64,000 nucleotides of DNA from positions 192,001-256,000 of the forward strand of contig CBDCTA010000029.1 in assembly GCA_965221955.1 (NCBI GenBank). The letters are read 5' to 3'. Shown here piece by piece: positions 1 through 34,902 of this stretch. The stretch's first letter is position 1. Every line of letters begins with the position of its first letter. This DNA is from Gammaproteobacteria bacterium (GTDB lineage: Bacteria; Pseudomonadota; Gammaproteobacteria; UBA4575). A program made the translations under genes and the position numbers. Below the pieces are notes generated by a model. It did no database searches and was not told where the DNA came from. It worked only from the letters and a program-made list of their open reading frames with translations.

Positions 1-515
1 TATCGGGAGCATCGATTGGAGATCAAGCATTCTTAGCATTTCTAAAAGAAAAACTTCAGGATGCTGAGATGTTTGTGAATAAACTTAGTTTTGAAGTAAC
101 CGAAAATGCTGCCATTAAGAATATAACTAAAGCTCGCGATTTTATTACTACAATAAAGGATTTCGGTTGTAAATTTGCTTTGGATGATTTTGGTAGTGGC
201 CACTCTTCATTTGCTTATTTAAAGGACTTGCCAGTGGATATACTAAAAATTGATGGCATGTTTGTTAAAGGTATTCACTTAGAAGATGTTAATTATGCGA
301 TGGTTAAAGCGATTAATGATGTTGGGCAAGTGATGAAAATGAAAACCATTGCTGAATATGTTGAAAATGAAGAAATTTGTAATGAGCTAAAGAAAATTGG
401 GGTTGACTATGGCCAAGGGTATTACTTTGGCAAATCAGAAAAACTTGAAGAAGTAATCGTTGTGGATTCAATGATCGCTGAACCTGAAGAGCTTGGGTCA
501 ACATATTCATCTTAA
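1..515 (+). CDS. EAL-domain c-di-GMP phosphodiesterase, 5'-truncated by the window edge
   Basis: Frame is open from position 3 (SGASIGD...); FEVTE, ALDDFGSG, LKIDG, IAEYVE and QGYY EAL motifs. Confidence 0.92.
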   Translation, partial: SGASIGDQAFLAFLKEKLQDAEMFVNKLSFEVTENAAIKNITKARDFITTIKDFGCKFALDDFGSGHSSFAYLKDLPVDILKIDGMFVKGIHLEDVNYAMVKAINDVGQVMKMKTIAEYVENEEICNELKKIGVDYGQGYYFGKSEKLEEVIVVDSMIAEPEELGSTYSS

Positions 516-597
516 TGTTCTTGGATTACTCACATTCTTAATAATTTAATCTGATTCTGTTATGGTTTAAATCCATATCAGCTTACTTGGATTAATT

Positions 598-1167
598 TTG
601 AAATATTGCAGCAGCTGTGGTTCTTCCGAAATCACATTAAAAATTCCAGAAGGCGATAATCGACCGCGGTTTGTCTGCCCTAGCTGTGATGAAATTTTTT
701 ATCACAATCCAAAAATTGTTGCAGGTTGTATTGCTGAATGGCAAGACAAAATATTGATGTGTAAACGTGCAATTGAGCCACGTTACGGAAAGTGGACTCT
801 ACCTGCAGGGTTTATGGAGAATCAAGAAACGATGCACGATGCTGCTGCACGTGAAACTCAAGAAGAAGCTACAGCCGAAGTTTCTAATCTAAGTCTTTAC
901 ACTATGTACAACTTGCCTCATATCAATCAGGTATATGTGATGTTTCGTGCTGATTTAGTAGAAGGTAAGGCAAGTCCAGGGGAAGAGAGTTTGGAAGTTG
1001 CGTTAATGACTGAAGCTGAAATACCATGGGATGAAATTGCTTTTCCAGTCATAAAAGAAAGCCTTGAAATATATTTTGAAGATAAGCGTAATCAGTCTAA
1101 TTTCGAATTACGCTATGGGGATATGCTGCGGTTGGCAGGGAAAAAATTTGAAGTTAAAAGATACTAA
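598..1167 (+). CDS. NUDIX hydrolase with N-terminal zinc ribbon
   Basis: CxxC...CxxC N-terminus; Nudix box GFMENQETMHDAAARETQEEA. Confidence 0.9.
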   Translation: MKYCSSCGSSEITLKIPEGDNRPRFVCPSCDEIFYHNPKIVAGCIAEWQDKILMCKRAIEPRYGKWTLPAGFMENQETMHDAAARETQEEATAEVSNLSLYTMYNLPHINQVYVMFRADLVEGKASPGEESLEVALMTEAEIPWDEIAFPVIKESLEIYFEDKRNQSNFELRYGDMLRLAGKKFEVKRY

Positions 1168-1906: not shown

Positions 1907-2734
1907 CTAGTTAATAGAAAAAAATTTCTTAGCTGTTTGAGTCGTTTCTTCCGCAGTTTGTTCCAAACTTGTTCCACGACACTTTGCCACCGTAGCTAAA
2001 ATATGCGGTAAGTAGGCAGGTTCATTGCGTCTACCATCTGGATTGGGATATTCGTCTTTAGGTAAATCTCTGGGTAATAGATACGGAGCATCAGTTTCAA
2101 TCATTAAACGGTTAGCGGGAATGTTTTTTATTACCTTATGTAGATGCTGACCACGACGTTCATCACAAATCCAACCGGTGATGCCGATGTGGCAATCCAT
2201 GTCGATATAGGTCTCAAGTTCTTCGGCGGTACCTGTAAAGCAGTGTACGACAACTTTGTTAAGTTGCTGTCTAAAAGTTGATAATATTTTTGCAAACTCT
2301 TTATGCGCATCCCGTTCATGCAGAAAGATAGGCATATTAAGTTCTGCGGCTAGCTCTAGTTGTGCTTTAAATGCTATTTTTTGTTGCTCAGGTGTGGAAT
2401 AGTTGCGGTTAAAGTCGAGACCCGCTTCCCCTATAGCAACTACATTTTCATGTTCGGTTAGTTTTTTTAAATTTTCATAACTGTTTTTTTGCCAGTGTTT
2501 AGCTAAGTGTGGATGCACACCCGCAGTGGACACCATGCCTTGATATTGAGTTGTCAGTTGACTCGCAAACTCGCTTTCTTTTATATCCGAACCAGTAAGT
2601 ACAAAATTGTGAACCCCTGCATGGTTCGCGCGCTCTACGACTTCATCAGCATCTTTGCGGAAAGCGCTGCTGGTAAAGTTAAAACCTATATCTACGAGTT
2701 CCACGTTATTAAGTTTTATGCAAGATGTGTACAT
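1907..2734 (-). CDS. tatD: TatD family nuclease
   Basis: DIGFN, GVHPH, GEAGLD, HERDAH, HCFTG, ETDAPYL and RNEP motifs. Confidence 0.93.
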   Translation of the reverse strand: MYTSCIKLNNVELVDIGFNFTSSAFRKDADEVVERANHAGVHNFVLTGSDIKESEFASQLTTQYQGMVSTAGVHPHLAKHWQKNSYENLKKLTEHENVVAIGEAGLDFNRNYSTPEQQKIAFKAQLELAAELNMPIFLHERDAHKEFAKILSTFRQQLNKVVVHCFTGTAEELETYIDMDCHIGITGWICDERRGQHLHKVIKNIPANRLMIETDAPYLLPRDLPKDEYPNPDGRRNEPAYLPHILATVAKCRGTSLEQTAEETTQTAKKFFSIN

Positions 2735-27920: not shown

Positions 27921-28000
27921 AAAAAACCCCGGTGCTCACGCTGCCGGGGTTTTTAATGTTTCCGGAAGGTAAGCTGCACCTTCCGATTAATTTGGAAGGT
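27921..28000 (-). promoter_or_regulatory. Attenuator: alternative hairpins plus intrinsic terminator
   Basis: On the mRNA: ACCTTCC / CGGAAGGT / ACCTTCCG, then AAAAACCCCGG...CCGGGGTTTTTT. Confidence 0.75.
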
Positions 28001-28002
28001 TG

Positions 28003-28149
28003 CTATGCCATGAAAATCTTTTGCATTTTCACTGCTTCAATGCCTATTTCTGCACGATGCAGTGCACAGTGTGTATTTGTAAACGACATAGTCGTGCACC
28101 ATGTATACATGTCGGTATTTAGGGCAAGTTGTTGCATAAAATTTTTCAT
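28003..28149 (-). CDS. Putative 48-aa leader peptide (not in the ORF track)
   Basis: MKNFMQQLALNTDMYTWCTTMSFTNTHCALHRAEIGIEAVKMQKIFMA*; sits between promoter and attenuator. Confidence 0.6.
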   Translation of the reverse strand: MKNFMQQLALNTDMYTWCTTMSFTNTHCALHRAEIGIEAVKMQKIFMA

Positions 28150-28186
28150 CGGCGGCGAACTATACTCTTTTAAACTCGTATTGCAA
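28150..28186 (-). promoter_or_regulatory. Sigma70-like promoter with GC-rich discriminator
   Basis: TTGCAA-16 nt-TATAGT-TCGCCGCCG-ATG. Confidence 0.6.
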
Positions 28187-34741: not shown

Positions 34742-34902
34742 GCTCTCTCCTCTAGTTGAGCAGGCTTAGGGTTCACTATATGTATAGTGAGGTAAAGGAG
34801 AGGTAAAATAAGTGGTCGAAAAAAGCAGACGAATGGGTATTTCGTCAAAATATTTACATATTAAAACATAGCATTAAAAGCTGCAGAAATGGTTACTCTA
34901 AA

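Follow-up and report, generated by a model that had tools for sequence, protein, structure and literature searches.

The locus considered here raises the question of what a leader peptide without a run of any one amino acid could report to RNA polymerase. It lies in a 64,000-nt stretch of DNA from a gammaproteobacterium (assembly GCA_965221955.1, contig CBDCTA010000029.1, positions 192,001 to 256,000 of the forward strand), which is called the window in this text, and it consists of a promoter, a short open reading frame (ORF), a set of overlapping hairpins and an intrinsic terminator, followed by an operon of small genes, A-(B)-C, in which gene B is optional. The whole element occupies positions 28186-27921 of the minus strand, and all its coordinates below are window positions on that strand. 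From the comparison of homologous sequences and their predicted folds, here it is proposed, with a probability of roughly 55%, that the element is a ribosome-mediated transcription attenuator on an apparently leaderless ORF, controlling read-through into A-(B)-C. An earlier note on this region had described a near-leaderless peptide with a hairpin switch at its stop codon; all the letters that it quoted are present on the minus strand between 28186 and 27921.

Of 61 related genomes searched at the DNA level, 27 gave matches, and four of these (L025-L028) lack the element. The complete element was found in 23 genomes, including 14 of 14 genomes of the genus and members of seven further genera of the family; these 23 (the genome of the window plus loci L003-L024) form the homologue set to which the counts below refer. 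The hosts are uncultured marine Thiotrichales-like Gammaproteobacteria, known from metagenome-assembled genomes. Across genera, two blocks are 78-88% identical, one with the promoter and the first ~30 nt and the other with the hairpins and the terminator, and the body of the ORF between them drifts. Metagenome contigs scanned for the pattern yielded 18 loci, namely 10 members of the family, three related designs (L055, L057 and L069) and five unrelated terminators. No second copy was found in the window's own genome, either by profile search or by a search with the three-segment pattern. No family of Rfam 15 came near its gathering threshold in a scan with E up to 10, the best scores being 19.2 bits for His_leader on the minus strand of the element (gathering threshold 49) and, over the terminator region, 27 bits for STnc430 on the opposite (+) strand (threshold 47).

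The element begins with a sigma-70-type promoter (28186-28159), made of TTGCAA (28186-28181), a 16-nt spacer and TATAGT (28164-28159), and 18 of the 23 leader promoters pass a sigma-70 promoter scan. The -10 hexamer is followed by the 9-nt discriminator TCGCCGCCG (28158-28150), then by the ATG of the leader ORF. This spacing of 9 nt is kept in 21 of the 23 homologues (it is 10 nt in L018 and ambiguous in L024), and no purine-rich stretch lies between the -10 box and the ATG in the alignment. With so few nucleotides and no purine-rich stretch, a Shine-Dalgarno sequence before the leader ATG is impossible, and the spacing would put the transcription start at, or 1 nt before, the A of the AUG; judged by this promoter geometry, the leader ORF is apparently leaderless, in agreement with the earlier note. 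The discriminator, also described there as GC-rich, is so in the window and in 20 of the 23 homologues, the exceptions being L018, L022 and L024. Upstream of the -35 hexamer, an AT-rich block (28233-28187) belongs to a conserved stretch of DNA (query positions 28-133) and possibly serves as an UP element or binds a factor. The sequence ..AGACAAACGGTAT.. is common to the homologues there, and the block (..ACAGAYRAACGGTAT..AT-rich) is shared across the genus. In its 16-nt spacer, its GC-rich discriminator and the AT-rich block before it, this promoter resembles those of stable RNAs (rRNA-like).

The leader ORF has 48 codons and a TAG stop codon (MKNFMQQ...KIFMA; 28149-28003, with the ATG at 28149 and the TAG at 28005-28003), and its length ranges from 36 to 56 codons among the homologues. 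Its frame is free of stops over 1055 codons, as against 105 and 74 stops in the other two frames, of 1032 codons each; because of this difference, it is concluded from the sequences that the ORF is under selection to be translated. The frame is also open in five further metagenome members that were inspected. The stop codon lies 0-5 nt 5' of the first hairpin segment in 23/23 homologues, so that a terminating ribosome must mask this segment, as had been suggested for a ribosome at the UAG. The window and its two closest relatives, L003 and L004, carry an extra C-terminal ..QKIFMA in the leader peptide. The codons for these residues (AAAGAUUUUCAU, 28025-28003) are complementary to the 5'-terminal AUGAAAAAUUUU (28150-28135) and pair with it in the minimum free energy (MFE) fold, so that the finished RNA could hide its own start codon.

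After the stop codon, the RNA consists of segments that can pair in more than one way. Segment 1 (ACCTTCC, 28000-27994) starts 2 nt ('ca') after the stop and would be masked by a ribosome with the stop codon in its A site. Segment 2 (CGGAAGGT, 27985-27978, or CGGAAGGTG with the following G, 27985-27977) can pair either with segment 1 or with segment 3 (ACCTTCCGG, 27970-27962), which is the 3' strand of hairpin 2:3. As the earlier note had it, segment 2 has these two partners: hairpins 1:2 and 2:3 are each predicted in 23/23 homologues, on average at -9.6 and -12.4 kcal/mol, respectively. The sequence of segment 1 varies (ACCTTCC, ACCTTCT, GACTTTCC, GGCTTTCC and others) with its pairing kept, and in 6/6 cases in which a C stands 3' of segment 2 there is a G 5' of segment 1. 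Covariation, a check proposed in the earlier note, is thus seen at this pair of bases; the corresponding result for the antiterminator is given below with the points against this reading.

The intrinsic terminator (27954-27921) consists of the 5' arm AAAAACCCCGG (27954-27944), the loop CAGCGTGAGCA (27943-27933) and CCGGGGTTTTT(T) (27932-27921), which gives the layout AAAAACCCCGG / GC-GUGA-GC capped loop / CCGGGGTTTTTT. Its stem of 11+2 pairs is followed by at least 6 U, A and U tracts flank it, and it is predicted in 23/23 homologues with a mean of -20.1 kcal/mol. In the alignment, 98% of the cells of the stem are paired, and the loop-proximal C-G pair is replaced by U-A in three sequences. 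The 96-nt tail as a whole folds with z = -3.95, and 0/200 shuffled sequences fold as well. Across genera, the loop of the terminator hardly varies; this is uncommon among terminators and would be explained by a second pairing role of the loop.

Such a role was found by folding transcripts cut just before the 3' arm of the terminator. Segment 3 together with the 3' part of the 2:3 loop (GCTTACCTTCCGG, or GCUCACCUUCCGG as RNA; 27974-27962) forms the 5' strand of a predicted antiterminator, and its 3' strand is segment 4 (CCGGCAGCGTGAGC, 27947-27934), which covers the final 4 nt of the 5' arm of the terminator and the terminator loop (CCGG..GCGUGAGC). The helix joins GCUUACCU.UCCGG (27974-27962; also written GCUCACCU.UCCGG) to CCGG.AG.GUGAGC (27947-27934). 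In the transcript without the terminator 3' arm, the MFE structure consists of 1:2 plus this 3:4 pairing. The antiterminator is the MFE structure of its sub-sequence in 23/23 homologues (mean -16.6, range -10.9 to -18.8 kcal/mol); that of the window has a folding energy of -15.5 kcal/mol with z = -3.89. Its 12 pairs are paired in 94.2% of the alignment cells, compared with 32-51% when the partner is slid. A compensatory change is found once (GUUCAC/GUGAAC in L021), in addition to one wobble, and a U-to-A change in segment 4 of L018, L022 and L024 lengthens the helix. Four mutually exclusive helices are therefore possible (1:2, 2:3, 3:4 and the terminator). In the earlier note, segment 3 had instead been thought to invade the 3' arm of the terminator; by hand, only CCGG:CCGG and two G.U pairs can be drawn for this, and folding never chooses it, so this part of the proposal was replaced by the pairing of segments 3 and 4.

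With these helices, the attenuator would work as follows. A ribosome that trails the polymerase to the stop codon would cover segment 1; segment 2 would then capture segment 3 as it emerges, segment 4 would be left free, the terminator would fold and the operon would be off. If the leaderless AUG is not initiated in time, or if the ribosome is stalled further upstream, segment 1 would be free of ribosomes, and hairpin 1:2 would form or win segment 2 back, allowing segment 3 to pair with segment 4. This pairing would lock the loop-proximal half of the terminator, the polymerase would read on and the operon would be on. The most likely direction of the switch, according to the folding models, is thus termination when the leader is translated to its stop codon and read-through when it is translated slowly or not at all, a direction that the earlier note had left open. 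The element would report how quickly a short ORF is initiated and finished by ribosomes, a measure of translation capacity, and its output would be the operon A-(B)-C with its candidate gene for a ribosome-rescue factor.

The folding energies are in line with this scheme before the terminator is complete. In the free RNA before the 3' arm, 1:2 plus the antiterminator has a mean of -26.8 kcal/mol, compared with -12.5 kcal/mol for 2:3 alone, and imposing the footprint of a ribosome at the stop codon raises the fraction of 2:3 from 0.05 to 0.56. To leave 2:3 for the antiterminated state, the RNA has to cross a direct-path barrier that averages 8.2 kcal/mol with segment 1 available and 11.0 kcal/mol with segment 1 masked, and this barrier is lower with segment 1 available in 21/23 homologues. 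The difference of 2.8 kcal/mol would amount to a roughly hundred-fold difference in rate, which in this model could straddle the fraction of a second that the polymerase needs for the terminator.

Several results weigh against the proposed attenuator. Hairpin 2:3 is more stable than 1:2 in 20/23 homologues and the terminator is strong, and both the equilibrium and the consensus fold give 2:3 plus the terminator, whatever the ribosome does. Since the full-length RNA at equilibrium is off (2:3 or 1:2, plus the terminator), any regulation must be kinetic, and the kinetic effect is only roughly estimated from direct-path barriers. The pairing probability of the terminator 5' arm is still 0.60 under the ribosome constraint, compared with 0.76 in the free RNA. 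The covariation of the antiterminator is not significant, as 65/500 shuffles reach the observed score; six of its 12 pairs never vary, mismatches occur in L011, L012, L013, L014 and L020, and the weakness of the covariation is due to sequences that are nearly invariant. In a crude control within the same genome, 27/533 terminator-like hairpins have an upstream competitor of similar size and energy, so that the antiterminator would be unremarkable in one genome alone, and what counts is that it persists in 23 genomes and in the paralogues described below. Additionally, some residues of the leader peptide are partly kept (MxxF[MI]QQ, F[MT][RC]A and QVK), and the peptide might act in trans. Finally, a motif (CCAACTAGAGG) between the terminator and gene A, described below, may be an operator, a non-sigma-70 promoter or an RNA site.

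If the element is a ribosome-mediated switch, the next question is which step of translation it follows. The leader stop codon is TAG in 18/23 homologues, TAA in three and TGA in two, and TAG accounts for 21% of the stops of long open frames genome-wide; a binomial test run with 17/23 gave p = 9e-8, a value that ignores relatedness. TAG is also the stop codon in both tRNA-operon paralogues, and a V-K-x-x-x-stop pattern is kept in many homologues. UAG is read only by release factor 1 (RF1), and the same switch could time the dwell of the ribosome on this codon (release by RF1 and recycling), a slow release masking segment 1 and leading to termination and a fast one leading to read-through. This is considered very unlikely, given that five of the 23 leaders use TAA or TGA and that slow release would lower the expression of the operon, a poor fit to a role in rescue.

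The same design was found at other loci, with other sequences. L071 (about 1985-2330, minus strand), together with L072, is a second element, located immediately before a cluster of 11 tRNA genes in genomes G014 and G028. It consists of a -10 box, 10 nt, an ATG, a 51-codon ORF and a TAG, followed by the segments. Its loop and segment sequences differ from those of the window (GCGAGCCUUCCGG with CCGG..AGGUUCGC), and, likewise, its free RNA is predicted to fold into 1:2 plus the antiterminator, with 2:3 predicted for an occupied stop codon. This paralogue was found in only two of the 61 relatives. L057 and L069, a pair of GC-rich metagenome contigs, hold a third version (TTGACT-17-TAGATT, 10 nt, ATG, a 55-codon ORF, TAG and the five-segment design) with the same predicted behavior and with tRNA-Phe and tRNA-Asp genes ~170 nt downstream. 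A leader of a somewhat different kind was found in L055 (a metagenome contig, leader at 534-599, minus strand), where the Met-rich peptide MTRADDCNNNAMEMPMVSTMG has 4 Met in its last 10 codons, the TGA stop overlaps a CCTT segment, and a hairpin and terminator similar to those of the window follow. An untranslated region precedes this leader at its 5' end, and a methionyl-tRNA synthetase gene (3-434, minus strand) lies downstream. The leader may be a methionine attenuator of metG, its similarity to the window being partly imposed by the search pattern. No comparable leader was found upstream of the metG of the window's own genome.

Methionine also bears on the signal read by the window's leader. 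The earlier note had stated that the peptide has no run of a single amino acid and is not a classic attenuator; the run is indeed absent, and an enrichment in methionine and cysteine had been missed. Of 1032 leader residues in the homologues, 8.8% (91) are Met and 3.1% Cys, the figures for the genome's long open frames being 2.1% and 1.0%, and ATG occurs 114 times in frame and 11 and 14 times in the other two frames; the p-values for such differences ignore relatedness. The same attenuator could thus answer a specific signal, with ribosomes stalling at Met (and Cys) codons when charged tRNA-Met or tRNA-Cys, or sulfur, is scarce, leaving segment 1 free and giving read-through. Leaderless initiation at AUG also needs charged initiator tRNA, and the Met-rich leader of L055, with its similar hairpin and terminator, precedes a methionyl-tRNA synthetase gene. 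However, the Met residues lie scattered, without a conserved distance from segment 1, nothing in the downstream genes points to methionine or sulfur metabolism, and the leader of the tRNA-operon paralogue has only one internal Met among ~50 residues (counted by hand). The match of L055, moreover, follows in part from the construction of the search pattern, and an antiterminator is not its predicted fold. On balance, a Met/Cys signal is judged unlikely; among readings of the element as an attenuator it is the principal alternative. A signal of general translation health, as had been suggested for this element, is favored by its anatomy, by the comparison of homologues and by downstream genes that are not biosynthetic; the tRNA-operon paralogues and an arfA-like gene in the operon also fit a signal of translation status. 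The Met/Cys enrichment may point to a specific amino-acid signal.

The genes behind the terminator speak to whether the element regulates them at all. The element lies directly upstream of gene A in 22/22 other loci, and the same genes follow. Gene A (71 amino acids, 27797-27582, minus strand) is the first gene after the attenuator and is restricted to the clade, with 35 clusters that are all at least 74% identical and none of which is named. It is present in 23/61 genomes, exactly those carrying the leader, and 22 of those 23 have gene C. Gene B (27560-27330, minus strand) is an optional 76-amino-acid paralogue of A, present in 13/22 other loci and detected among second, weaker matches. Among the downstream genes there are no amino-acid biosynthesis genes and no known families. 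Gene A has no match in Pfam or NCBIfam, its AlphaFold model is of low confidence (mean predicted local distance difference test, pLDDT, of 58), and among PDB sequences it matches a PC4-like protein weakly (E = 1.2); in a protein atlas, no usable lead was found for either gene A or gene C. In most homologues, the C-termini of A and B are ..AKAA and ..KEAA, which are reminiscent of alanine-rich C-terminal degradation tags.

This strict adjacency and co-occurrence with gene A is one point against another explanation, by which the ORF and its structured 3' end would be an independent gene for a small protein or a dual-function small RNA with a constitutive terminator. The hairpins would then serve RNA stability or form a trans-acting seed (CACCUUCCGG), and A-B-C would be transcribed from a promoter of their own, possibly at CCAACTAGAGG. 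Trans-acting attenuator RNAs and leader peptides are described in the available parts of two reports (PMC6614838, PMC7298713). The terminator is very strong and has A and U tracts, the 3' end with its hairpin and terminator is like that of a small RNA, the N- and C-terminal residues of the peptide are conserved, and so is the motif between the terminator and gene A. However, there is no conserved sigma-70-like promoter between the terminator and gene A (8/23 regions match, at scattered positions, in the scan that 18/23 leader promoters pass). The conserved loop of the terminator is complementary to segment 3, the stop codon keeps its place next to segment 1, and the five-segment design is found again, with different sequences, in front of tRNA genes. 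An independent small gene is therefore regarded as quite improbable.

The motif CCAACTAGAGG (27842-27832, minus strand), 35-45 nt before gene A, was recognized by eye in 20/23 intergenic regions. Two more copies are present in the genome (at ~34750-34760 of the window, minus strand, and on contig C4), 8-25 nt before ATG codons, one of these extra copies preceding a small ORF at ~34740. An upstream mini-ORF at the motif was considered and rejected, most homologues having no start codon there.

Gene C (27281-27003, minus strand) encodes a small basic protein (..RNLLHNHPLLRKGGIHRKSNKSKRR..KKEW..) with the pattern RN.LH.HPLL.KGG.H.K.NKSKRR...KKEW. Its family comprises 505 representative clusters (E up to 0.001) of 45-110 amino acids with the pattern RN.LH.HPLL.KGG.H.K..K..R; 0/54 sampled members match Pfam, 0/17 match NCBIfam, and no PDB sequence matches. 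A long hairpin of 20-25 bp (27128-27077) lies within the ORF, starting at the KKEW codons. It is found in 19/21 homologues with -15 to -45 kcal/mol and with compensatory changes, for example in L015, L019 and L023, and the seemingly conserved residues VYFGE simply correspond to its descending arm.

According to the available part of a report on arfA and brfA (PMC8012679), a stem-loop inside these ORFs leads to a non-stop mRNA, through cleavage by RNase III or termination in the case of arfA, so that the factor accumulates only when trans-translation fails; gene C is like the genes described there in being small and basic and in having a long stem-loop in the ORF just after the conserved part. 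The K-G-G..S-N-K-S-K of gene C also recalls the KGKGS of ArfA and the KKGGSTNKK of ArfT in the part of the description available (PMC6299226), which is a resemblance only. By this analogy, gene C is a candidate for a release-factor-dependent ribosome-rescue factor. Unlike these similarities of design, sequence homology to ArfA is not detectable in gene C: an hmmscan of 14 members with PF03889 gave no match, hhalign against E. coli ArfA gave a probability of 0.1-0.2%, BLASTP likewise gave no support, and the assignment of gene C as an ArfA homologue was rejected as unsupported. Canonical ArfA (PF03889) was found in 0/61 genomes, with the E. coli control positive, and tmRNA is present in the window's genome. 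We know of no arfA gene behind a leader-peptide attenuator, a point for which no specific search was made.

Leader-peptide attenuation is textbook knowledge, and in nearly every case it serves a single amino acid and the pathway of that amino acid. The sequences would place the present element with ribosome-mediated attenuation, probably as a form differing from the classical families. With the trp, his, thr, leu, pheA and pheST attenuators it shares a short, presumably translated ORF, overlapping hairpins and an intrinsic terminator; the position of the ribosome, which decides between the hairpins in those attenuators, would do so here as well, and the his leader also uses more than four segments. 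In contrast to these, it has no run of regulatory codons and no biosynthetic or synthetase gene downstream, and its ORF is apparently leaderless and long (36-56 codons), with an extra layer of helices. Because of this extra layer, an untranslated leader would give read-through, whereas in trp an untranslated leader gives termination.

Closer in other respects are the leaderless polycysteine short ORFs of mycobacteria (10.1101/834739), in which, as far as the available text goes, a leaderless 5' ORF is also present and its translation controls downstream expression. Those ORFs, however, belong to Actinobacteria, where leaderless mRNAs are common, and contain Cys runs that respond to cysteine, whereas the element described here is gammaproteobacterial, has no run and has an explicit pair of terminator and antiterminator. 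Similarly, in the msrD and mef/mel leaders (PMC10314930, PMC4335068, in the parts available), a stalled or absent ribosome turns on a translation-helping gene by attenuation, but this involves particular drugs, particular nascent peptides and resistance genes. The present element has no resistance gene, occurs in uncultured marine bacteria and has paralogues before tRNA operons. Searches of open-access text for leader peptides at tRNA operons or with a leaderless start turned up nothing describing its design. What sets it apart is the absence of a codon run, the apparently 5'-terminal AUG, the inverted default by which an untranslated leader would lead to read-through, and genes of the translation apparatus, rather than of metabolism, as its apparent targets.

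The link that these comparisons suggest between the attenuator, ribosome rescue and tRNA supply is interesting and unproven. As a broader and tentative proposal, more doubtful than the attenuator itself, leaderless 'test ORFs' with a five-segment switch could form an undescribed class of elements that measure the pool of free, working ribosomes co-transcriptionally and feed back on tRNA operons (in the paralogues) and on a new rescue module (genes A, B and C), in which gene C would be a fourth, independently evolved rescue factor that recruits a release factor and is made from a non-stop mRNA. If the attenuator is as proposed, it would be a simple natural sensor of overall translation capacity, compact enough, at about 230 nt, that it could be moved into a reporter, and it would offer three protein families of unknown function, including that of gene C, a testable route to a function.

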